Sequence record: OL631257.1
Source of the DNA: Escherichia phage ECCR664
Strand: one strand, 5' to 3'
Length of the DNA stretch: 64,000 bases
Shown here: piece by piece, positions 1 through 60,099 of the stretch
Layout of the letters: each line of letters starts with the position of its first letter
Numbering within the stretch: the first letter of the stretch is position 1
Translations under genes and position numbers: made by a program
The notes under the pieces: generated by a model
What the model was told of the DNA's origin: nothing
Seen by the model: the letters and a program-made list of their open reading frames with translations, nothing else
The model's database searches: none

Positions 1-455
1 TGTAGCAATTTGAATATGTAGCTTGACTGAACGTTGTTATTATAATCAAATATTTCTTGAAGCGCACTAACTTCAACTTTCTTACTGAAATAGTAGATGT
101 TACGTACGTCTTCAGCAAACGACTCTTTAGCTTGTTTGAGACGTCCAATATATTCCCTATAGAAAACTAATGCATCAGCGTCTGATATCTCACCAATCCA
201 TGCGTCTTGGTTAGCAACTAAGTTGCTTATGAATATCAAGGTGAGTTCCTTCAATTTATATTTCTCTGATAGTTTTTCAAAGAAATATTTATCTCGGCGT
301 TTTTGATACGCATTATCTGAAACACGCATGCACCAGTTATATTTGATTACGTCATACCGACCACCAAAGTGGTTTTTGCACATCAAGTATAGTTTATATA
401 CTGATTTACCGTTAATATAACGTTCTCCATCAGGAGGCATACGTATTTTAATCAT
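1..455 (-). CDS. 59: gp59 helicase-loading protein (N-terminal ~151 aa; C-terminus beyond window start)
   Basis: Reverse translation from ATG at 453-455 gives MIKIRMPPDGERYINGKSVYKLYLMCKNHFGG..., T4 gp59-like; start overlaps gene 33 stop (ATGA); synteny 59-33-dsbA-rnh. Confidence 0.8.
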   Translation of the reverse strand, partial: MIKIRMPPDGERYINGKSVYKLYLMCKNHFGGRYDVIKYNWCMRVSDNAYQKRRDKYFFEKLSEKYKLKELTLIFISNLVANQDAWIGEISDADALVFYREYIGRLKQAKESFAEDVRNIYYFSKKVEVSALQEIFDYNNNVQSSYIFKLL

Positions 456-790
456 AATAAGAAATCTAATGTATTAGTTTTTTCACCACGAGCAACTGAT
501 GGGCGAAGCATGTTTTCGTCAATTGCTTCGCTTGTAATTTTTTCAACAATTCCTGTAGGAATAAATTTAGCAAATTGTGTTTCTGGAATAGAATTTTCTT
601 CCAAGAAAGCAGTTGTTGCTTCTAAATAAGACATACCAAATTGTTCAACCATAGATTCGATAATGAATCCGTTTTCTTGACGGTCAAGCAATTTAGCGAT
701 ATCATCTTTATCATGTTTTACTGCTAATTCTTGTTCAGATAAACCGGCCTCATCAACCGGTTTAATATCACTTAGTGAAAACTGTGTCAT
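452..790 (-). CDS. 33: gp33 late transcription accessory protein
   Basis: 112-aa ORF, same length as T4 gp33, acidic C-terminal region; position between 59 and dsbA. Confidence 0.8.
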   Translation of the reverse strand: MTQFSLSDIKPVDEAGLSEQELAVKHDKDDIAKLLDRQENGFIIESMVEQFGMSYLEATTAFLEENSIPETQFAKFIPTGIVEKITSEAIDENMLRPSVARGEKTNTLDFLL

Positions 791-7804: not shown

Positions 7805-10800
7805 ATGGCTACATTAAAACAGATACAATTTAAAAGAAGCAAAGTAGCAGGAGTTAATCCTACTGCAGCACAATTAGCCGAAGGCGAATTAGCGATAAAC
7901 TTAAAAGATCGAACTCTTTTACTAAAGACGACCTCGGTAATATTATTAGCCTAGGCTTTGCTAAGGGCGGGGATATTAACGGTAATGTAACTCAAAATGG
8001 AGATTATTTACAGAACGGTACATATAATCTCAATGGAAATCAGTTTGTTTATGCAGGAAAATATATTGAATTTTTACCTAAAACTGCAGGCAATGGTGCT
8101 TGGGCAAATCAACATCTAAATAAAGCTCCTATCTTTACAGATTTGAGTTCAACTACTTCTGTTTCAGAATATCATCCACTGATTAAACAACGCTATAAAG
8201 ATGGAACTTTTTCTGTTGGTACGTTAGTAAACGAAGGAAGTTTTAAAATTCATTTTATGAATGAATCTGGTGATTCGAAATATTGGACGTTTCGCCGTGA
8301 CGGTGGATTTACTGTTGATGGTGGAGGTTTAGCAGTATCAGGAGGTAGTATAACTACATCTGGAAATATTGCAGCTCTCGGAAATATTACTTCGCCTCAG
8401 ATTAATACTAAAAATATTATTTTAGACACAAAAGCATTTGGACAATACGATTCGCAATCATTAGTTCAATATGTTTATCCTGGAACAGGCGAAGAAAATG
8501 GTGTAAACTATCTTCGTAAAGTTCGCGCTAAATCAGGCGGAACTATTTACCATGAAATCGCTTCAGCTCAAACTGGTAAGAATGATGAAATTTCTTGGTG
8601 GACCGGAAATACACTTACTACTAAATTAATGGGTCTTCGTAATGATGGCGCAATGGTATTACGTCGTTCACTTGCTATTGGCACAATTACTGCTGACGAA
8701 AATACTAACAACTATGGCTCTCCTACTCCAATGGGAGAAAGATATATTGCTTTGGGCGATGCTGCAACTGGTTTAAAATATATTAAGCAAGGCGTTTATG
8801 ATTTAGTAGGTAATTGGAATTCTGTTGCTTCTATTACTCCTGATAGTTTCCGTAGTACTCGTAAAGCATTATTTGGACGCTCAGAAGACCAAGGCGGAAC
8901 CTGGACAATGCCTGGAACCAACGCCGCGCTTTTATCGGTTCAAACCCAGGCTGATACAAACAATGCAGGTGATGGTCAAACCCACATTGGATATAATTCT
9001 GGCGGTAAATTTTCCCATTATTTCCGTGGTACAGGTCAGATGAATATCAATACCCAACAAGGTATGGAAATTAACCCGGGTATTTTGAAATTGGTAACCG
9101 GTGCAAATAATGTGATGTTTTATGCTGATGGCGGTATTACATCCACTAAGCAGCTTTCAATATATAATGGTGTATATTTAGCAGCTAATAATTCTACTGC
9201 CGGGCTAACATTCGCTCCAACTACTACAGTTGATGGCACTAAGCAAATTTTGTGGGAAGGTGGTACTCGTGCTGGGCAGAATAAAAGCTACGTAACTGTT
9301 AAAGCATGGGGTAATTCATTTAACGCATCCGGCGATCGTACTCGTGAAACAGTTTTTGAAGTAGCTGACGGGCAGGGATATTATTTTTATTCTCAGCGCA
9401 TAGCTCCAACCGGTTCAGAAACTGTGGGACCTGTTGTAACCCAGTTCAATGGACAAGTTAATGCTAGAGGAGCATTATCACCGATGGAAGTCTTAGAGTT
9501 AATGGATTAAGTGCATTATCCGGACAAGTTACTATGGATAACGGGCTTGTTTTATCCGGTGGTGGTTCTATTACCGGTCAAGTTAAAATCGGTAATACCG
9601 CAGATGCTTTCCGTATTTACAATGCTGAATATGGAGCTATTTTCCGTCGTTCTGAAGCGTCTTTGCATATTATACCTACACTTAAAGATGCAGGTGAAAG
9701 TGGTGGTATTTCTAACCTTCGCCCATTGAGTGTTTCTCTTAACAACGGTATGGTTCAAATGCGCCATTCTGTTACGTTAGGTGATGATGGTGCTGGCGGT
9801 AATATGGTGACCGTTGATAATGATAATAAACTTGTTGTTATAACTAGTCATAGTCGCATTTCTCCTAATTACCGTATGCAATTAGGACAATCGGCATATA
9901 TCGACGCTGAATGTACTGATACTGCACGACCTGCTGGAGCCGGTTCTTTTGCTTCACAAAATAATGAAAACGTTCGTGCTCCGTTCTATATGAATATTGA
10001 TAGAACAGATACAAGCACTTATGTTCCTATTGTGAAACAAAGATACGTTCAAAATAATAGTTGCTATTCTATTGGTACTTTAATTAATGGTGGTAACTTT
10101 AGAGTTCATTATCACGAAGGTGGTGACGGCGTTTCTACTGGTGCTGTTATAAAGGATCTTGGATGGGAATTTAATAAAAACGGTGATTTTTATTCTCCTG
10201 GTAAATTAGGCGCTGGTAATGTTCGTATTGGTACTGATGGTAATATCACTGGTGGTTCTGGTAATTTTGCTAACTTGAATACCACAATAAATAACCTTAA
10301 GACGGATATTGTCTCGAGTTACCCAATTGGTGCTCCGATTCCTTGGCCTACTGATACACCTCCTGAAGGCTATGCCATAATGGAAGGTCAAACATTTGAT
10401 GCTGGCTTGTATCCTAAGTTAGCTGCAGTGTATCCTTCCGGCACTCTGCCTGATATGCGTGGTCAAACTATCAAGGGTAAACCATCTGGGCGTGCTGTAT
10501 TAAGTACAGAAGCAGACGGTGTTAAGTCACATAGCCATAGTGCAAGTGCATCAAGCACGGATTTGGGTACTAAGACCACATCAAGCTTTGACTATGGTAC
10601 TAAGACGACAAGTAGTTTCGACTATGGTACTAAGACCAGTAATAATACTGGTGCTCATACGCATAGTTTGAGCGGTTCCACAAACACCGCCGGTGCGCAC
10701 AGCCACACAAGCGCTCTTTATGCGGGAAGTAACAACGCTCCTGGTATTGGTTCTATAAGAGGATCCGCCGGTGGTGGTAATACGCTTGGAACTTCTTCTT

Positions 10801-15426: not shown

Positions 15427-15593
15427 TGTTTTGTGAGAAAAATGCACAAAAGGGAGCCGAAGCTCCCTAATCGCGATTGTCCAACCAATACAGCCAAATC
15501 ACTAGTGCAGCTATTGCACCGAGAAATCCTAAGGCTAGGGCACTCAAAGTGCCTCCAAGTCTTTAGTGTACTCTGTCACAACATCAGTAGACT

Positions 15594-16865
15594 TCAATAC
15601 TCATTTTCTTCTTTCTTAGCTTTAGCTTCTTCTGCTAGTTTACGTGCTTCATCGGAAGTGATATGGAAGATGTTAAGACCTACCAGTTTATCAACATGTT
15701 CTTTATACATTTCGATTTGTGCTAGCTCTTCAGTCAAAGCTTTACGAGTCTTGCCCTGAATCACAATTTCACCACTGATAACTTTTTTGATGAAGTGTGC
15801 CTTAGCAAAAGCCAGTTTAAATGCTTTTTCAGATTCAAGGATTTTGTTGTCAATACGTTTCTGAACGTAAGTCTTACGGACTTCAACAAAATCTTTGATT
15901 AAGTCCACTACGTTATCGTAGACCGCTAATTTACCTTTTTCATTAATCACTGTGATGTTTTGTGAACGACGTTCGATGAGACTAAAATCTTTCATGATTT
16001 TTTCATGACGTAGCTCTTCGTCATCTGGAAGCGAGTACTCTTTACGGAACTTCACCTTAAACCCAAAGCCGTGTTCACCACAATCATCTTCCCATGAGAT
16101 TAGACCTTTGTCTTCCAACGGGTCAAGAACCTTACTCACATACGTTTCACGGTCGAATTTATATGGTATTTCAGTTATCTGCATTTGAGTACGAGATGTG
16201 AACTTGTATGTTCCGTGAATCTCATAACGCCCATCAACTTCATGCACTTCACCACGGAATTCCGGGAATTCAACTTTTGGCTTAGTGACATTTTTACCTT
16301 GAAGAGCTTGTAATACAGCCTTTTGACCGATTTAAAACTATGAGGCAGAATATTTGTTGCGTAACCGGTTGCAATACCAGAGACACCGTTCAAAAGAACT
16401 GTCGGAATAATAGGAAGATAGAATTTTGGTGGAACGTGTTCTTTATCTTCATGAGCTGGAGCATATTCAGTATCTTTATAGACATTATAGAAATTTTTAC
16501 TTACACGAGCAAAAATATAACGAGATGCTGCAGCTTTTGGACTGTTCTAGAACCAAAGTTGCCTTGACCATCTAACAGTGGATAGTTGTTGTTCCATGTG
16601 TTAGCCATTAATGCACCTGCATCTTGTGCAGAAGATTCACCATGGTGATAACCTAAATCTGCAACACCACCCGCAATTGATGCAAGTTTATGAAATTTTT
16701 CTTTATTACCACGAGCCAAATCTAATGCACGATGAACCACAAAACGTTGAACCGGCTTAAATCCATCAATCATATTTGGGATTGCACGGTTTTCAACGGT
16801 GTACATCGCATATGCTAAGGCTTCGTTATCAATAATACTTTTAGATTACGAGAATTCAATTGCAT
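15594..16865 (-). CDS. 52: gp52 DNA topoisomerase II medium subunit (GyrA-like; several frameshifts)
   Basis: N-terminal MQLN.R.LK... then ...MYTVENRAIPNMIDGFKPVQRFVVHRALDL (ORF 16501-16806) and C-terminal 217-aa fragment 15594-16247. Confidence 0.8.
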
Positions 16866-16869
16866 ATTT

Positions 16870-17010
16870 TCACCATATTAATGAACGAATAACCATTATA
16901 ACATCTGAAATGAAAAGCACTACTTGAATTAGTCCAAACATCACACCGTAGTACAGAACCGTAAGCAACAACAAGAGCCCGAAGGCTCCTGCTAAGATTT
17001 TCTTAATCAT
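16870..17010 (-). CDS. Small hydrophobic protein (46 aa), position of T4 ac
   Basis: MIKKILAGAFGLLLLLTVLYYGVMFGLIQVVLFISDVIMVIRSLIW read from minus strand; below the 60-aa ORF-track cutoff. Confidence 0.35.
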   Translation of the reverse strand: MIKKILAGAFGLLLLLTVLYYGVMFGLIQVVLFISDVIMVIRSLIW

Positions 17011-20290: not shown

Positions 20291-22504
20291 TTATTTGGCC
20301 GCTTCCACGGCCTTCATGAATTTAACGATTTGAGCGACCTGTTCTTTAGAAAGAGTACCACGTCGTCCCATGTATTCTGACACAATATGATAATTGGTTT
20401 CGAATTCAATAACCATTTTATCATCATTATCGTAAGCATTATCTTTAAGCTTATCGAAAATTTTAGCACACAATTCTAACTTCCTGTTCAGGTCTCTGTT
20501 TTCAGCACCTGCGAATCGATTCCATCCCCAACGATTATTTACTGTTGAGAGTTTTGCAAAGTCTTTACTGATTTCTTTGTTCTTAGAGCTAAAATATTTA
20601 CTAAGGAAATTAAGCTCTTCATTACGAGTAATATGATTCAAATAAGGCTGTGCTCTACGACTTGGTGATACATACTCATCATAATCCACTTTATCGATTA
20701 GCGTAATATAGTCATTAATTGATTTTTCGAACAAGCATTCTACTTCACCAAGTTTACGAACTTTCTTAGCAATCTGCGGACGAACTACAGTGAACTCTTT
20801 AATACCTGACAAATCAGCAATACGGGTCAAGAAATTGGAGTCATAGTTCAACCAACCTTTATCTGCGTCAAGACATTCAGCATTAGAACGATTACGAACT
20901 ATAGCATAACCTTGGATTTCATCTGCTTCACTCGCTGGAATAAAGAGATCTTCTGATACCCAAACATCGTTTTCATTCTTAAAGAATCGATGAGCACTTG
21001 GCGATTTAGGACGAGGCTCATTAGTTCGTTTCCTGACTTCAATCCATGGCTTAACGATTTGTAAAAGCTCTGAAGTCTTGTACATGTTAATGTTGTCGCC
21101 ATCAAAGATAACTTTAAGGCGTTCCAGAAGTTTCATTGCATCTTCGTCTGTAGGGTCAACGAATAGTACGCTTTTACCAAAACCGCGTGGAACTTTACCA
21201 GTTAATTTAACCTCGTCTTTAGACATTTCAATTGAATTAAGAGCTCGCATTAATGGAACGCGTCCCTTAACGTCGTCAATAACAATTTCAACATTTTTAA
21301 TGTTAATGCCAATCAGACTGTTAATTGAAATGGTTGCCGTTGAGCTACCGCTTTCACGAATACGACGAAGACGAGGGGATTCAACGATATCGTATACGAC
21401 ACCAAGATTACACCACTCAGGCCCCATTTTAAAACGTTTATACAACTCAGAATAAGTTAGTTGTTCTTTAGAGTATTTCAGTGATTCAATATTAGACCCG
21501 GCCTTTTCCATGTATTTACGAGCGGTATAGCCAAGAGAATCAATTTCACGGAACACATGACGTGGGTATTTACAATCAATCCATTTCTTAGAATCTTCAG
21601 CGAACAATTTAGCATCGATTTCTGCAACGCGTTTATGGATATTTGCTACTGTACGTTTATCAAATGACAATGCTTCACGAGACGGAGCTACATCTAGTTC
21701 ACCCATAGGGAATTTAATATAAGCTGTAGTGCATCGTGTCATCATCCATGTTTGTTCTTTAATAACACTTCCGATTGGATATACAATACCACCGTAAACA
21801 GCCATGATATTACCGCGTTCACCCCATGGAGCTTCCTTGGCCAAATATACATCGTCAAATTCTGGGAAGTATTTAATATCTTTAACACCACGAACTTCTG
21901 CAATATCACCTAGAGGACGCATAACATAGGCAATTTCGGATGCGAACTTTTCAAAATCTTCTGGGTTAACGGGTACAACTACTTCTACACCTGTACGGTC
22001 GTCAGGACCCATCTTATCTACAAAAGTCGGCTTAATTTGTGGACCTGTGTCATCTTGGTAGATTACGTAACCACGAACTTCACCGTTGTGATAAGACGTA
22101 AGGTTAAACGTATCGGTATATGCTAGCGGAGCTTTAGAACCGAGTCCGAATCCACCAATGAAATCGTTACTAGATGTTTTAGTTGAAGCAAAATATGAGT
22201 TATAGATTCCTGGCTCTTCGTCATTACCTCTAATGGTGAAATCGCTCATACCAGGACCAAAGTCTCGAACTACAAAGCGTGGGTCTAAACGACCTGGAGC
22301 CTGAACAATAAACTTATCAGTGCAACCGTTAAGAATTTGTCCATCAATACAGTTTGTGATTAATTCACGTACACAAGCCAATTCTTTGTTTGTATAAAGG
22401 TCATTAGACAAAATCTTATAAACTTTGCTATTGCCTTGAATAGTGAATGCTGTGCTCTTACCGCCTGAACCAATAATCGTTTCTTTAGCCGTTTCAATAA
22501 TCAT
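20291..22504 (-). CDS. rIIA: rIIA protein
   Basis: Intact ORF; start taken at MIIETAKE (737 aa); N-terminal HATPase-like region; adjacent to rIIB as in T4. Confidence 0.85.
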   Translation of the reverse strand: MIIETAKETIIGSGGKSTAFTIQGNSKVYKILSNDLYTNKELACVRELITNCIDGQILNGCTDKFIVQAPGRLDPRFVVRDFGPGMSDFTIRGNDEEPGIYNSYFASTKTSSNDFIGGFGLGSKAPLAYTDTFNLTSYHNGEVRGYVIYQDDTGPQIKPTFVDKMGPDDRTGVEVVVPVNPEDFEKFASEIAYVMRPLGDIAEVRGVKDIKYFPEFDDVYLAKEAPWGERGNIMAVYGGIVYPIGSVIKEQTWMMTRCTTAYIKFPMGELDVAPSREALSFDKRTVANIHKRVAEIDAKLFAEDSKKWIDCKYPRHVFREIDSLGYTARKYMEKAGSNIESLKYSKEQLTYSELYKRFKMGPEWCNLGVVYDIVESPRLRRIRESGSSTATISINSLIGINIKNVEIVIDDVKGRVPLMRALNSIEMSKDEVKLTGKVPRGFGKSVLFVDPTDEDAMKLLERLKVIFDGDNINMYKTSELLQIVKPWIEVRKRTNEPRPKSPSAHRFFKNENDVWVSEDLFIPASEADEIQGYAIVRNRSNAECLDADKGWLNYDSNFLTRIADLSGIKEFTVVRPQIAKKVRKLGEVECLFEKSINDYITLIDKVDYDEYVSPSRRAQPYLNHITRNEELNFLSKYFSSKNKEISKDFAKLSTVNNRWGWNRFAGAENRDLNRKLELCAKIFDKLKDNAYDNDDKMVIEFETNYHIVSEYMGRRGTLSKEQVAQIVKFMKAVEAAK

Positions 22505-22806: not shown

Positions 22807-23907
22807 TTACGCTGTGAAGATTTTATCCCACATCGCAACAACTGCATCTCGGTTATACTTCTTCCATACTGCTTCAGCACGTTTAACTCGAGCTTCGTAT
22901 GTGTCAGTGAATTCTAATACAGCTTTTGTGTAAAGCGCAACTACTTCTTTCTTAGGAGTAGAAGAATCAATTTCTACACGCACAGTATCTGGGTCGTATT
23001 CGAATGTCGCATGCGGATAATCCTTAAAAACTAACTGGATTACAGGGACACCTTTAGAAATGGCTTCAATAGAACTATTCTCTACCGTACCCGTGTCAGG
23101 ACACGTATTGATAAGTGCTTTAGCTGTTTTAAGACGTTCCATGATTTCACTGTGTGGAGCATCAATAATAACAGGATATTTAGCTGGTGGTGCCCATTTG
23201 CTTGGACAATAACCAATACCATTTTCGCCTAGTGCTTTAATTGCTTCAAGAGCAACATCAGTGCGACGCATCTTAGTGTCATAACGTTGAGCACTAATAA
23301 TCAAATCAGTTGCCGGAAGAACTTCAGGTTTTTCATTCAAACAAATAACCGGGTAGTCATCAGGTTCAAATAATGGATTTTCACGCCAGTAGTCATAATC
23401 AATTTTGTCAGTAAGAGCTGAAGTCATATGACAATATTTACGTTCAAATTCACGGAATGCTTTAGTAGGAGCATAGCTCTTCCCACCGTTCTTGTGAATC
23501 TGGATAGTCTGATCCCAAATTTGAACAATACCACGAGACACCGGTTCAAACGGCGTAGCCATAAAATTCTTATGAACTTTAGAGAGTCCAGCATCTTTAA
23601 TTGCTTGGACGGTTAGTTTAGTCGGTTCCATAGTAACAACAAAATCGTATTCATGGATGCCGGCTAGTTCAACGATCTTACGAGCCATAGTATAACTCAT
23701 ACCTAGACTGAATTTAGTCAGATGACCAACAGGATGGTGTGTAACCTTCCAATCACCAAATGTGTCATTATCAAAACCAATATAATCAATATCAGCACCG
23801 ATGGACACAAGATATTTCAACACATTTAAATGTACTGCTTCAAGACCACCTTGTACACGTTCTGGGTTAAACGGGACTGCGCGAGATGGGATAAACATAA
23901 CTTTCAT
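22807..23907 (-). CDS. GT-B fold glycosyltransferase (candidate DNA hmC sugar transferase)
   Basis: Intact 366-aa ORF; C-terminal region GTVENSSIEAISKGVPVI fits the GT4/GT-B donor-binding motif E-x7-E ...G.PV(V/I); sits immediately after rIIA where T4 has rIIA.1/gene 60. Confidence 0.55.
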   Translation of the reverse strand: MKVMFIPSRAVPFNPERVQGGLEAVHLNVLKYLVSIGADIDYIGFDNDTFGDWKVTHHPVGHLTKFSLGMSYTMARKIVELAGIHEYDFVVTMEPTKLTVQAIKDAGLSKVHKNFMATPFEPVSRGIVQIWDQTIQIHKNGGKSYAPTKAFREFERKYCHMTSALTDKIDYDYWRENPLFEPDDYPVICLNEKPEVLPATDLIISAQRYDTKMRRTDVALEAIKALGENGIGYCPSKWAPPAKYPVIIDAPHSEIMERLKTAKALINTCPDTGTVENSSIEAISKGVPVIQLVFKDYPHATFEYDPDTVRVEIDSSTPKKEVVALYTKAVLEFTDTYEARVKRAEAVWKKYNRDAVVAMWDKIFTA

Positions 23908-23911
23908 AATT

Positions 23912-23940
23912 AAGCCTTATTAAAATTAAAATGAAGCTCC
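23912..23940 (-). terminator. Intrinsic terminator (UUCG tetraloop) after gene 39
   Basis: Minus strand AGCUCC-UUCG-GGAGCU followed by U-rich tract, just after gene 39 stop. Confidence 0.6.
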
Positions 23941-23949
23941 CGAAGGAGC

Positions 23950-25764
23950 TTAGGACATCCATTCTTTACGAAGTTCTGAATCATCACCCAACAACATTTC
24001 AAAGAGTTCTTTCCAATTTTCAGGAAGTTTAACTACGTCGTACACAGGGTTTTGAATCATTTCACGATATTCTGACTTTTCAAGGAGCCCAATCCCTTGA
24101 TGTATCGAATACTATGCTTAGGCAGTGTATCTTTAGCTTCTTCATACTCAGCTACAGTATAAAACCATTTTTGTGTTTTGCCAATTTGTGCAATAATTAC
24201 AGGCGTTTTAACAAAACGAATACGTCCTTGTTCAAACAATTCAGGCCAATTACTAAAGAAAGCAAGCAAAGCCGGATAGATACTTCCAAGACCGTCATGA
24301 TCGGCATCGGTCATAATTGCAATATTACGATAGTTCGTATTCTCTGCCTTTTCACCAAGAATAAGACCCGTGATAGCACAGATATCAAAGAGCTCTTTGT
24401 TCTTCATCATATCAGCATATGACATACCCCAGCTATTCATCACCTTACCACGTAATGGGAATCCACCATGTAGTTCACGGTCACGAACATCAATGAGATA
24501 ACCAATTGCCGAATCACCTTCTGTTAAGAACAATGTCGTATCTGCATCTTTACCACATTGGTTAGCTTTAATATGCTTATGAACCTTAGCTTTAGTTGCC
24601 TTTTTAGCTGCTTTAGTTTCTGCAGCCTTTTCTGCCGCCAATTTACGAGCTAATGCTGCTTCAACAATAGGCATAATCAAGGCTTCGTTTTTAAGAAGTG
24701 CCTGAGCAATTTTCTTAGCATCTAATTGGATATGATTACGAATATCACCATACGTTGACGTTAAACGTTCTTTAGTCTGAGAATCAAAACGCATATTGCT
24801 CATGTCTCTAATAAACATCAACATTGTGAGACATTCTTTAACACGAGCTTTAGTGACTTCAATACCCTTATATTTCTTTTTAATACCTGGCAAAAGATGT
24901 TCGCAGATATCATCCATTACGCATTCAACATGATGACCACCGTTTTTAGTATGGATGTTATTCACATAAGTTAAATGACGGAAGCCATCTGGTGATGTTG
25001 TGAATGCTATAGAGACTTTATCATTTTCTTGAATGATGTTATCTTCACCAAATTGTTTAGCAAATCGTTTAAAATTACCATCAACCTTTTACCGTTAAAT
25101 GTGAACTTGATATCAGGATAAACGACTGCCAATGTTTGAAGTCGGTCTAAAGTAATATCTAAATAAATTTGAGATAAATTATGCTCTTCAAATGAAGTGA
25201 AATCAGGAGTGAAGATTACTTTAGTGCCTTTACCTTTAGATTTCTTAGAAGACCATGATTTGTTTTCCATTCCGTTTGAACAGTTAACAGTGATTTCATT
25301 TTCACCATCTGACGTAATGCCTGTAAACAACGTAGAGAAGATATTAGTTAAACTACTCCCGACGCCGTTCATACCACCAGTCTTGCGTTCAGAGTCGTCA
25401 CCAAAGTTACCACCAGCCTTTGGAATAGTCCAGGCTGCTACAGGCCCAGGAATTTGTTCGCCTGTTTGGTCGGTAACTAAACCTTGAGGAATACCACGTC
25501 CGTTATCTTCCACAGAAACTTGATTATTTTTAATTTGCACATCAATTTTATTTGCAAACTTAAATGATGTACGAATAGCTTCATCAACCGAGTTGTCAAT
25601 AATCTCATCGATTAATTTAACCAGACCAGGAACATATTCAACTTGTTGATATTTACCAAACAAAAACGCTCATGTGCTTCTTTGGCCGAAGAACCAATAT
25701 ACATACCACTACGTTTCTTAATATGTTCTACATCCGACAATACCTTAATTTCATTTTTAATCAT
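23950..25764 (-). CDS. 39: gp39 DNA topoisomerase II large subunit (GyrB-like), unsplit form including the segment encoded by gene 60 in T4 (frameshifted)
   Basis: MIKNEIKVLSDVEHIKKRSGMYIGSS... ATPase domain (25007-25663), TOPRIM region ...IAIMTDADHDGLGSIYPALLAFFSNWPELFEQGRIRFVKTPVIIAQ (24057-24965), C-terminal ...YREMIQNPVYDVVKLPENWKELFEMLLGDDSELRKEWMS after frame repair; ~605 codons. Confidence 0.85.
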
Positions 25765-25827
25765 GTTGTCTCCTCGTTATGAAGGTATTCTATCATCCGA
25801 AATCTAAAGCAAAAGGGCCGGAGCCCT

Positions 25828-26272
25828 TATTTAAATTTAATTTTCTGAAGTGTATCAATTGCAGCTAAACGCCCTTGTTCACTTTTAACCGTAATGACCA
25901 CATCGCCTGATACGATCACCGAACCATCAACAAATTCTATAGAGCCTTTTTGAAATCGACAGCTGTATCTGGTTCCGGAACTTCTTCAAAGAATTTAAAT
26001 TCTGCACCATAAATCAGAATATCACCTTGCATACTATGAATAGTTCGGCCATAATCGCCTACGGCTTCTACAGCAATCACTGAAACACCATAACCAATCA
26101 TCTCTTCCACAATAAAATCTTTAGACAATAAAGTAGTATGCAGATTAGTATTAAGACGTTTACCAGTCGTATTAAGAATTCTCAAGAAATTATCTTCCTG
26201 TCCTTTGATAATACGATATTTCTTACCAACTTCAAAACCTTTAAAACCTTTAAAAGACGTATTAAAAGCCAT
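25828..26272 (-). CDS. Hypothetical early protein (~148 aa, one frameshift)
   Basis: ORF 25937-26272 continues in another frame to a stop near 25828; hairpin aagggc-cgga-gccctt immediately downstream. Confidence 0.35.
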
Positions 26273-28162: not shown

Positions 28163-28660
28163 TTAAGCTTTAAGAGGAGATACATAGCGAGTGATTTCAG
28201 ATTCTTTAACAACTCGGAAGTCACCTAAGAATACGATATTGTATAACTTTTCACCATCTTCAACCCATTGGTCACTAATGAAGCCGCACATAGTATCAGT
28301 TTTGCTTGGATAACCGTATTCGTCGATGTAATCAAATTCTTTATCGGTTATAAATTCAACGCCTTTGCAAAGGGTCCATTTGAACTGTGTAGTAGGCTCA
28401 ACGATATCGTTTGAAGCAAAGTGTGCAGGTGCAACTTCTTCGCTTGAAGCAAATTGGACTCGTATATGTTTTTCCAGGAATTTAGGACTTACGTAAGCAT
28501 ACTGGGCATCTTGTCCGCCAAAACTCGGAATGATTCGAACTTTAACTTCTTTAACACGTCCCATGCCGTTAGTACGAAGCCCTGCTACTTCAACCAGACG
28601 ACCTGCAGCTTTAGAACGAGAAGCAGGAGATACACGAAGGATTTCACCAATAGTAATCAT
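28163..28660 (-). CDS. Paralog family member B (~165 aa), unknown function
   Basis: Motif CGFISDQWVEDGEKLYNIVFLGDFRVV; start set at MITIGEILRV downstream of promoter 28688-28722. Confidence 0.5.
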   Translation of the reverse strand: MITIGEILRVSPASRSKAAGRLVEVAGLRTNGMGRVKEVKVRIIPSFGGQDAQYAYVSPKFLEKHIRVQFASSEEVAPAHFASNDIVEPTTQFKWTLCKGVEFITDKEFDYIDEYGYPSKTDTMCGFISDQWVEDGEKLYNIVFLGDFRVVKESEITRYVSPLKA

Positions 28661-49104: not shown

Positions 49105-49130
49105 AATAAAGTGGCCGCCAGGATGATAAC

Positions 49131-49900
49131 TTACAATCCGTGGAACTGAATCTGATTTAACTTTCTTATACCAATTGACTTCATCTTTTGAAGTGCAACG
49201 CCCTGTTCTGTTAAAGCAATCTTTGTTACCGTTTCTTCGCCAATTTCAACTGCATTAAAACTACGATTAAGTTCACGAACTTCATGAGCTTTTTCAAGTT
49301 TAGGCATATCACCAAGGTCGATGATATTCATAAGCTCTGATTTATTGAATGCGCCGCTGTAAAGGAATTCTACAAAATCACGTCCTTTGCAGTATTCGTG
49401 AATTTCCTCATCAGTAGAACCCATGTAGAATTCCCAGTCTTTGAACTGATAAATTCCTACAACATTACCGCCTGTTGAACCTACGTTAGTGATATTTTCA
49501 CCATCGAAATTATATCGACATTCATCACCTTTAACATAGATTGCGTTAACATTCCAAGACCATGAACCAAAATCAGGAATAATATCACACCAGTTAACAA
49601 CTACGTTATGGCCGTCTAAATCTTTATGTAATTTAGCAAGAGCATAAGCAGAACCATACGCTTCATCAACTGTACGAATAGTCACATTGAACCCTTCTTG
49701 CTCACAATAAGCTCGAACGGTTTCAGCAAATTTTGAATGAACTACTACAATAATTTCATCTGCGCCAAGGTCAGAATAAATTGTGTACAAATTGCTCAGA
49801 ATAGTGTCTTGTTTATAGTTCACAAGAACTTTTGGAATATGGTGAGTAATTGGATATAAACGAGTTGCCAATCCAGCACCAAGAATAACAGCTTTTTCAT
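49131..49900 (-). CDS. Sugar-phosphate nucleotidyltransferase (frameshifted near N-terminus)
   Basis: After frame repair N-terminus reads MKKAVILGAGLATRLYPIT, the G-x-G-T-R-L-x-P-x-T nucleotidyltransferase signature; 246-aa fragment 49131-49871. Confidence 0.6.
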
Positions 49901-56914: not shown

Positions 56915-58603
56915 GCGTTTATGAAACAGTCATCACAGTAAATCGTCCAACTTTACTCATCTGAAGATGTTGTCCATAACGTTGAGGGTCATGGTCTCGA
57001 TGAGAGATAATAAACACATTAGTATTTTGTAAACTTCCAAGAATGGTATCTATAGCCTTAACAGCCTCAGAATCGACAGCCCCATCAAAACCTCATCAAG
57101 AATCAACGTGTTGATTTTAACACCAGAAACTTTTTCAGCAATATCTCGCCATGTAAACAACAATGCGATATCGATACGTGCCTTTTCACCTTGACTAAAT
57201 GAAGCATAACTAAAATCTTCACGACCACGTGATTTTATAGATTCATTGAATTCTTCGTCAATAGAAAACACATAATCAGCTTCCATGATTTTAAGGTAAT
57301 GGTTAATCTGCTTGTTGAACAGAGGCACATATTTTTAATGATAGCACCTTTAATACCAGAATCTTTTAACATATCTGTTATAATACCACGATGGTATTTT
57401 TCAAGAACGATATCCGATTTTGTTTTAATGATTTTATCAAGTTCTTTTGAAGCAAAGCTATCTCATCGGCATGGTCGATAAATTCCGCCGAGGCTTGTTC
57501 TATTGCAGCTTTAACTTTCTTAGCTTTATCAATAGTGGCAATCATTGCTTGTTTCTTGGTACGAATATCAGATGCAAGGTCCTGTTTAGTCTTAACATTA
57601 GCTCTATATTCGTCCACTAGGACACTCAGATTATCTCTGTGACAGGTAAGTTGCTCGAATGAGTGATTACATTCATGAAGCTTATCGGTAATCTTAGAGA
57701 CAATAGGATCACCCTGGTGCAACTGTGATGCACAAGTAGGACATGTGCCACCGTCATGATACATCTTAATAACTTTGTTATATGAGTCAATTTTAGATTT
57801 AATCAAGAATGCTTCTTGACCGATCTTGTTGAATGCCTCAGTAGGGTCTTCGTCAAGAACGATATTAAGTAGACGCTCGTTAGCTTCTTCAATTTCTGCT
57901 TTTAATGAACGAGCTTCTTTGGCTAGGTCGTCATACATATTCTGTAGACGCGCTACATTATCGCCAGATAATTTCTTTTGACGTTCGATATTCTCGTTAT
58001 AAATCTTAATTTGTTGGATAATACCATCTTTCTTGGCATCGAGAACTTGTCCCTGGGAATTAAGTTCTCGAACTTGAGACTTATTGATTTTATCCATTTC
58101 AGCGAGTGTTCCAACTTCTAATAAGTCTTCAACAAGCTTTCTGCGAGCAGGGGTGCTAAGAGCCATGAAAGGGGTATACCCTGCCGTCCCAAGCACAACG
58201 ATCTGTTTAAAAGACGCGTATGACATTCCGATGCTACGTTCAAATTCTTCTTGGAAGTCACGACTGCTGGCAGATTCATCAAGACGAACACCGTCAACGG
58301 AGATTTCGAAAATATTGGGCTTTTGGCCACGTTTAATGAAGTATTTTTATCATCGAATTCCATCCAAAGCTCAACTAAGAGCTCTTTCTTGTTCGTGCTA
58401 TTAATGATTTGTCCTTTCTTAACATCACGAAATGGTTTACCGAAAAGTCCGAAAGTAATGGCTTCTAACATCGTAGATTTACCACCGCCATTTTTACCAG
58501 TGATTAATGTCTTTTGGACTTTATCTAATTGGATATCGATAGGATTCCCACCTACCGACATGATATTTTGATAACGAACACGATTTAATTTAAATGATTT
58601 CAT
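56915..58603 (-). CDS. 46: gp46 recombination endonuclease subunit (Rad50/SbcC-like; frameshifted)
   Basis: N-terminal MKSFKLNRVRYQNIMSVGGNPIDIQLDKVQKTLITGKNGGGKSTMLEAITFGLFGKPFRDVKKGQ (Walker A); coiled-coil and CPTC zinc hook in 57378-58226; C-terminal ...ILDEV... and ...VFIISHRDHD. Confidence 0.85.
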
Positions 58604-59083: not shown

Positions 59084-60099
59084 TGTGTTGCCTCAATATA
59101 AAGTTCGTTGGAATATTTGACCAGCGCTTCTCTGTCTTCGTCTGAGATATCTGGAATCGCGTCAATATATTCTTTAATGATATCTTGAAGTGATTTAATC
59201 TCGATTTCCTGGTCGTCATCAGATTCAACACTGTTATCAACTTTAGAAACCATACGAAGAGAGTGAACTACTTTTTCAAGTTCAGATTCAAACTTAGTCA
59301 ACTCTGAATCAATTTCTGATACTATAACACGTACGGCTAGATTAGTATAATCAGAATAATTGATTTTGCCTTTAAATGGATAAGTGATTCGTCGATGCCA
59401 TGTTGTTTCATTAGGAATAAATTCCATACGTTCAACATCAGTGTCAAATACCCAGAATCCGCGAGGGTCGTTCTCATCGCCTGCAGTAAGGGTCCACGGT
59501 GTCCCAATATATTTGACGTTAGCAGCTTCAGAGATTGTGTGGAAGTGGCCGGACCAGACTTGTTTATAGGTCTTTAAGAAATCAGGTTCAAGCCCGTGAG
59601 ACTTCATTCCTTTATAGAAATAGAAGCCATTTAATTCCCAGTGCCCAACACAATACGATGCAGAAGAAGTCTTGATATGCTCTAAGATTTCACCTGTATT
59701 TTCTTCACACATCCATGGAACGATATCAATCAGACATCCGTCAAAATCTACAGTAGTTGGATGTTCGTAAATAGTAAAGTTTTCAAATTGAGTTAACAAT
59801 TCAGAAACAGTGTTAGGTGTTATTGTATTCTTAAACGCCATGTCATGGTTTCCTATCGTGACATGAACGTGAATGCCTGCTTTAGAAATCATATCAACGA
59901 TTTCACGATTGAATTCCATCGTACGATGTGTAATTGCTTTACGGACGTCAAACCAATCACCGTATTGAATCCAAGTTTTAATCCCGTGTTTCTTAGAGTA
60001 TTCAATTGCTTGACGAATACCATCACGTTGAATATCTTGAACCCATGGGTCGTCTTGTTTGACTCCGATATGGAAGTCTCCTAAGTGCAAAATTTTCAT
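59080..60099 (-). CDS. 47: gp47 recombination endonuclease subunit (Mre11/SbcD-like phosphoesterase)
   Basis: Intact 339-aa ORF; MKILHLGDFHIG (motif I), ...GNHD..., ...GHWEL..., ...GHFH...; same length as T4 gp47. Confidence 0.9.
   Translation of the reverse strand: MKILHLGDFHIGVKQDDPWVQDIQRDGIRQAIEYSKKHGIKTWIQYGDWFDVRKAITHRTMEFNREIVDMISKAGIHVHVTIGNHDMAFKNTITPNTVSELLTQFENFTIYEHPTTVDFDGCLIDIVPWMCEENTGEILEHIKTSSASYCVGHWELNGFYFYKGMKSHGLEPDFLKTYKQVWSGHFHTISEAANVKYIGTPWTLTAGDENDPRGFWVFDTDVERMEFIPNETTWHRRITYPFKGKINYSDYTNLAVRVIVSEIDSELTKFESELEKVVHSLRMVSKVDNSVESDDDQEIEIKSLQDIIKEYIDAIPDISDEDREALVKYSNELYIEATQ

Follow-up and report, generated by a model that had tools for sequence, protein, structure and literature searches.

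An unsplit topoisomerase gene 39 with an empty MobA/bypass site, and homopolymer-associated frame breaks, in the sequence of an RB69-like Escherichia phage

Introduction

The topoisomerase of phage T4 is an exception in that it has three subunits, while those of T2 and T6 have two and are encoded with an unsplit gene 39 (PMC11461880). The split in T4 was attributed to the insertion of the homing endonuclease gene mobA (PMC2988022), and mobA together with the bypass sequence was described as a mobile cassette (Bonocora et al. 2011, PNAS, as cited in bioRxiv 10.1101/2022.08.31.505936). The MobA/bypass cassette has been described as a mobile element that entered a formerly uninterrupted gene on separate occasions in several clades (bioRxiv 10.1101/2022.08.31.505936; PMC2988022). 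A survey found it in just 28 genomes from 6 clades, and each clade had relatives of 96-99% identity that lacked the cassette (bioRxiv 10.1101/2022.08.31.505936). The unsplit gene 39 is the usual T-even state, as already published, and the split arrangement of T4 is the exception.

In the phage collection, the T4-type element, at a coverage of at least 80%, was present in 41 of 50,697 records, all of them close to T4; very close relatives of T4 also occurred without it. Phage T6 matched the T4 element through the unrelated mobE alone. Diverged copies were found in Salmonella S16-like, Proteus and Acinetobacter phages. Among the 40 matches listed, which were sampled across a ranking of 136, there was no RB69-like (Mosigvirus) phage with a T4-type element.

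Relatives of the Phage and Surroundings of Gene 39

The window, that is, the whole stretch of 64,000 nucleotides analysed here (Escherichia phage ECCR664, OL631257.1), comes from an RB69-like T-even phage of the genus Mosigvirus and is 96-99% identical to phages ST0, vB_EQ1 and PhAPEC2. In the phage collection, the closest relative over 24 kb was ST0 (96.6%). Megablast analysis of the gene 39 region returned more than 140 phage records with 95-99% identity (98-98.8% over the full 1941 nt), all of them from Mosigvirus; region identity was 98.8% for vB_EQ1 and 98.6% for PhAPEC2. In the relatives, a hypothetical protein is annotated after the "DNA topoisomerase II large subunit". The gene order of the window (rIIB, rIIA, rIIA.1, RB69-ORF003c homolog, 39, ORF005c and onwards) was that of RB69-type phages.

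A first-pass annotation had taken the unsplit gene 39 as a mark of a genome of ancestral type at this locus and outside the immediate T4 lineage. The former was a fair description, since the cassette is a mobile insertion into a continuous gene (bioRxiv 10.1101/2022.08.31.505936; PMC2988022). The latter is true by overall nucleotide similarity, which places the phage in Mosigvirus, but the locus itself does not show it: T2, T6 and many other Tequatrovirus genomes are unsplit as well (PMC11461880).

Several features were observed around the locus. Directly 3' of gene 39, an intact ORF of 366 aa (22807-23907, minus strand) was the homolog of RB69 ORF003c; it had no Pfam match and fell into PHROG 8302, "unknown function". 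RB69 ORF003c has been proposed as an arabinosyltransferase making arabinosyl-hydroxymethylcytosine DNA (PMC6024577). Homologs of the ST0 "arabinose 5-phosphate isomerase" (~50.0-50.6 kb) and "phosphoheptose isomerase" (~47.9-48.3 kb) were also found in the window, and the two are consistent with an ara-hmC modification module. In the ORF005c homolog (25937-26272, minus strand), a 21-nt in-frame insertion at 26241-26261 produced an FKGFKGF repeat near the N-terminus. This insertion was common to vB_EQ1 and was not in ST0 or PhAPEC2; it is a genuine length polymorphism, unlike the one-base deletions described below.

Further away, short patches of dense substitutions with compensating indels were seen against the otherwise ~96%-identical relatives, at 8031-8160 (gp37), ~5205 (gp34), 49121-49221, 57032-57086 (gp46) and 59683-60028 (gp47), and one at 21019-21530 (rIIA) against PhAPEC2 only. 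These patches look like mosaic or recombinational divergence of the kind usual in the tail-fibre and recombination genes of T-even phages. The alignment also broke in a MotB-like region (28400-28413 in the window, 28404-28450 in ST0), where the window was about 37 nt shorter; the number of annotated MotB-like ORFs in that region varies between relatives.

Organization of Gene 39 and Its Predicted Product

The topoisomerase II large-subunit gene (gene 39) was located on the minus strand at 25764..23950, with the ATG at 25764-25762 and the TAA at 23952-23950. The limits given in the first-pass annotation (23950-25764) were therefore the exact start and stop of the gene. The features of the locus were as follows.

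23950..25764, minus strand: gene 39, unsplit T2/T6/RB69 type, from ORF pieces, three-frame translation and alignments
25770..25775, minus strand: Shine-Dalgarno-like GAGGAG, 5 nt 5' of the gene 39 ATG, from reading of the sequence
25813..25828, minus strand: terminator-like hairpin 5' of gene 39, closing the preceding transcription unit
23934..23951, minus strand: terminator-like hairpin AAGCTCC-TTCG-GGAGCTT with a T-rich tail, overlapping the gene 39 stop codon

Terminators are annotated in PhAPEC2 at positions homologous to both hairpins flanking gene 39. As written, the gene measured 1815 nt; once 3 missing bases were put back, its length was 1818 nt (605 codons). The protein translated from the repaired gene was identical to PhAPEC2 gp39 at 604 of 605 aa and to ST0 gp39 at 600 of 605, and most nucleotide differences between gene 39 and its relatives were silent.

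Pfam analysis of the repaired protein showed a GHKL ATPase domain (HATPase_c) at aa 47-190 (44.2 bits, cut-off 26.4) and a GyrB-type transducer domain (DNA_gyraseB) at aa 249-385 (53.4 bits, cut-off 27); TOPRIM_C at aa 520-604 scored 27.5 bits, slightly below the cut-off of 29. The sequences LTEGDSA (aa ~414-420) and TDADHDG (aa 482-488) stood in one chain, within the single frame segment 24965-24057. They contain EGDSA and DxDxD, the motifs of TOPRIM domains. Homology to the T4 proteins was far beyond chance (E = 0 to gp39; 1e-87 to gp60). The gene of the partner subunit, gp52, was recognised at ~15.5-16.9 kb of the window, where the "DNA topoisomerase II" CDS of ST0 (15551-16876) aligned.

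According to these assignments, the product of gene 39 would be a single-chain, GyrB-like subunit of 605 residues with GHKL ATPase, transducer and TOPRIM domains. By homology with T6, for which this has been established by structures, it would pair with gp52 to form an A2B2 type IIA topoisomerase (PMC11461880). The protein is probably an active topoisomerase subunit, judging from its 79-99% identity to its counterparts in T4, T6 and Mosigvirus phages; biochemical work on the T4 and T6 enzymes has been published (PMC11461880).

Three Frame Breaks in Gene 39

Gene 39 of the window, as written, did not form an intact open reading frame. It had three frame breaks, with stop codons shortly after each. 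The ORF pieces 25764-25612, 25663-25007 and 24965-24057 lay in three frames, and the last ~36 codons were back in the first frame. The breaks were positioned as follows.

25662..25666, minus strand: frame break 1, T5 in the gene sense (A5 on the plus strand), T6 in relatives; between Phe34 and Leu35, HERF|LFGK
25087..25090, minus strand: frame break 2, A4 in the gene sense, A5 in relatives; FNGK|KVDG, codons ~225-226
24084..24085, minus strand: frame break 3, CC in the gene sense, CCC in relatives; GLGS|LEKSEY, codons ~561-562

All three relatives compared (PhAPEC2, vB_EQ1 and ST0; 98-99% nucleotide identity) had an intact CDS of 1818 nt and 605 codons. The gene in the window was exactly 3 bases shorter than theirs, and every missing base fell in a homopolymer. 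The first-pass annotation had described a single gene of ~605 codons after one frame error. The codon count stands for the repaired gene, but the number of breaks is three; the error noted there was the one near 24084, and those near 25662 and 25087 were not included.

The three frame breaks almost certainly represent homopolymer under-calls, that is, an artefact of sequencing or assembly. This reading of the sequence follows from the behaviour of the rest of the window, where the same deletions occurred throughout, were biased toward deletion, depended on run length and affected essential genes.

Homopolymer Deletions Across the Window

Over the 47.8 kb of the window that aligned to ST0, one-base deletions outnumbered one-base insertions by 80 to 10. 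Among the 80 deletions, 60 fell in homopolymers of at least 3 bases, 48 of them in homopolymers of 5-6, overwhelmingly of A or T. In the first 48 kb, 34 of the 74 ST0 CDSs were affected, and runs of 6 or more numbered 10 in the window versus 35 in ST0. The same pattern continued from 48 to 64 kb, with two deletions each in the genes of gp43 DNA polymerase and gp62 clamp loader, and others in those of gp46 and the late sigma factor gp55. Deletions were also found in the genes of the tail-fibre proteins gp34 and gp37, in the gp38 region, in rIIA.1 and dda, and in the gp52 gene (15595, 16321, 16535 and 16839). Example positions across the window were 2316, 11260, 15595, 16321, 22639, 31080, 42262, 52626, 52631 and 61103.

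The total over the 64-kb window was about 100 single-base homopolymer deletions relative to ST0; with every one-base deletion in the window included, the rate was about 1 per 0.7 kb. In the stretch of 20-28 kb, the three relatives concurred at every deletion site. Insertions in the relatives instead of deletions in the window were rejected as a source of the differences: three independent genomes agreed with one another, their CDSs were intact, and the window was poor in runs of 6 or more.

Homopolymer error that depends on run length and is biased toward deletion is the classic signature of a sequencing or assembly fault. In addition, a phage with gp43, gp55, gp34/gp37 and gp62 all broken could not exist, and the deletions are almost certainly not biological. 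Any call of a frameshift, a pseudogene or a split gene from the window should be regarded as an artefact until it has been checked against relatives or reads.

Biological Explanations of the Frame Breaks

Three explanations in which the breaks are real were weighed against the artefact. The first is that gene 39 has become a pseudogene and that the phage relies on host gyrase in place of its own large subunit. The sequence as written, with three frame breaks and a stop soon after each, has the appearance of such a gene. The T4 topoisomerase genes are moreover conditionally dispensable: mutants in genes 39, 52 and 60 are viable under some conditions and show the "DNA-delay" phenotype, so a true loss of just gene 39 would be conceivable. 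However, the 3 bases aside, purifying selection on the gene is obvious, in that the repaired protein differs from that of PhAPEC2 at one residue and the differences are mostly silent. The same kind of deletion affected nearly half of the reference genes within the first 48 kb and further genes past that point, indispensable ones among them, and its direction and dependence on run length are technical in character. We consider decay of gene 39 very improbable.

The second explanation takes the breaks as real and has them bridged by programmed -1 ribosomal frameshifting or by transcriptional slippage at the runs. All three breaks would need a -1 shift, and two of them lie in T5 and A4 runs, where slippage is conceivable. 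However, the third site is merely CC, and no heptanucleotide slippery site with downstream structure was seen. The arrangement is also not conserved, as every close relative has an in-frame run one base longer at all three sites. About 100 sites of this sort occur both between genes and in genes that have nothing to do with one another, a distribution which no recoding mechanism would explain. Decoding of this kind in gene 39 is even harder to credit than its decay.

The third, that the short runs are real throughout the phage, with many genes expressed by frequent -1 slippage at T or A runs or with loss of the topoisomerase tolerated, is scarcely believable, for dozens of essential genes would need the same rescue.

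The Empty MobA/Bypass Site

Gene 39 was compared with the split genes of T4. Window 25764-24346 aligned to T4 5328-3911, and window 24282-23956 aligned to T4 2794-2467. Between these two blocks, T4 carries 1116 nt, which comprise the C-terminal extension (CTE) of gp39, the mobA pseudogene with 60.1, the N-terminal extension (NTE) of gp60 and the coding gap of 50 nt. The window has 63 nt at this place. Two features were defined here.

24283..24345, minus strand: empty site, uninterrupted coding sequence over 63 nt (..KAENTNYRNIAIMTDADHDGLGS..), where T4 has the 1116-nt MobA element
24288..24293, minus strand: counterpart of the codons for take-off and landing in T4 gene 60, Gly488 GGT followed directly by Leu489 CTT

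The first-pass annotation had quoted the peptide ...MTDADHDG|LGSIYPALLAFF... as colinear, and this peptide was indeed contiguous in one frame, with Gly488 (GGT) at 24293-24291 and Leu489 (CTT) at 24290-24288. At the take-off and landing position, the window reads GAC GGT CTT GGA AGT (D-G-L-G-S) without interruption (24296-24282), whereas T4 reads GAT GGA TAG CCTTCGGGCTATC...ATT GGA TTA with 50 nt between. No GGA-UAG take-off, hairpin, 50-nt gap or matching landing codon was present at the homologous place in the window. A search of gene 39 for GGA followed by a stop codon found one such string, at 24915, out of frame.

Between the T4 homology blocks there was no HNH endonuclease gene (mobA) or remnant of one, only the 63 nt. 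The T4 MobA element was also compared with the whole 64-kb window by blastn (word size 7) and by tblastn with all its ORF pieces, and the sole match was to HomR, the element's own copy of ..NY.N.AIMTDADHDG... This match covered 45 nt (24336-24292), with E values of 0.017 by blastn and 1.4e-6 by tblastn; other matches were noise. The protein had no residues beyond those of T6 or PhAPEC2 gp39, and extensions of the CTE or NTE type were not found. The 63 nt fit the 55-75 nt of the parental gene that the element removes and replaces on insertion (bioRxiv 10.1101/2022.08.31.505936).

We also considered an element, or a CTE/NTE remnant of one, that is present but too diverged to be seen. Nothing found in the window points to it; it was raised because the preprint describes Aeromonas and Campylobacter clades that keep the CTE and NTE alone (bioRxiv 10.1101/2022.08.31.505936). 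The length of the gene, however, equals that of unsplit relatives and of T6 gp39, with which the protein aligns in one stretch (1-605 to 1-604), and leaves no space for a CTE of ~44 aa and an NTE of ~30-45 aa. What the 63 nt encode is conserved parental sequence, and the ORF pieces of the T4 element matched HomR only by tblastn. The protein, T6 and DNA alignments and the tblastn search together rule out a diverged element or remnant at the site, and its presence there has next to no probability.

The site of the MobA cassette in the window is empty and parental; it lies within TOPRIM, starting shortly ahead of the DxDxD motif and running through it. With the site empty, the large subunit would be made as one chain of 605 residues, like that of T2, T6 and RB69. 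The description of the gene as unsplit, without bypass element or mobile gene, was correct, and a take-off/landing pair, a hairpin and a mobA-like insert, named in the first-pass annotation as what would speak against it, were looked for and none was found. Its statement that the C-terminus of T4 gp60 corresponds to the 3' end of gene 39 was borne out by the protein alignment (aa 27-159).

Taken as a whole, the locus is very likely an ordinary uninterrupted gene 39 of an RB69-like phage, with its MobA/bypass site empty and with frame breaks that are not biological. The unsplit state here has little biological weight, and the practical value of the locus is as a warning about homopolymer deletions.

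Comparison of Gene 39 with T4, T6, T2 and Mosigvirus Phages

The repaired protein shared 79% identity with T4 gp39 over aa 1-473 and 87% identity with T4 gp60 over aa 27-159, and the two alignments abutted at window residues 473-474. The tail of T4 gp39 (aa 474-516) and the head of gp60 (aa 1-26) had no counterpart in the window. In T4, the MobA element interrupts the TOPRIM domain at a point that lies between its EGDSA and DxDxD motifs. The flanking coding sequence was homologous between T4 and the window, and ..NYRNIAIMTDADHDG.. of the window corresponded to ..NYANVAIMTDADHDG.. of the element-encoded HomR. Unlike T4, the window was without the 1116-nt insert, CTE, NTE, mobA, 60.1, take-off, hairpin, gap and GGA landing codon.

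Phages T6 and T2 belong to a different genus (Tequatrovirus), and the similarity of their gp39 to that of the window was at about the T4 level (79-87%). Their gp39 is nevertheless an unsplit single chain with GHKL, transducer and TOPRIM domains, as in the window. The window protein aligned to T6 gp39 (8ylu_C, cryo-EM) end to end in a single stretch (window 1-605 to T6 1-604, 1161.9 bits), whereas it aligned in two stretches to an artificial fusion of T4 gp39 and gp60.

The gp39 proteins of the Mosigvirus phages PhAPEC2 (AHV82713.1), ST0 (YP_009608398.1) and vB_EQ1 (XPQ48414.1) were like that of the window in position and, after repair, in their 605 codons, with protein identity of 99.2-99.8% and nucleotide identity of 98-98.8%. 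The window gene differed from these three copies by one base fewer in each of the 3 homopolymer runs, and alignment to PhAPEC2 and vB_EQ1 showed 10 substitutions specific to it.
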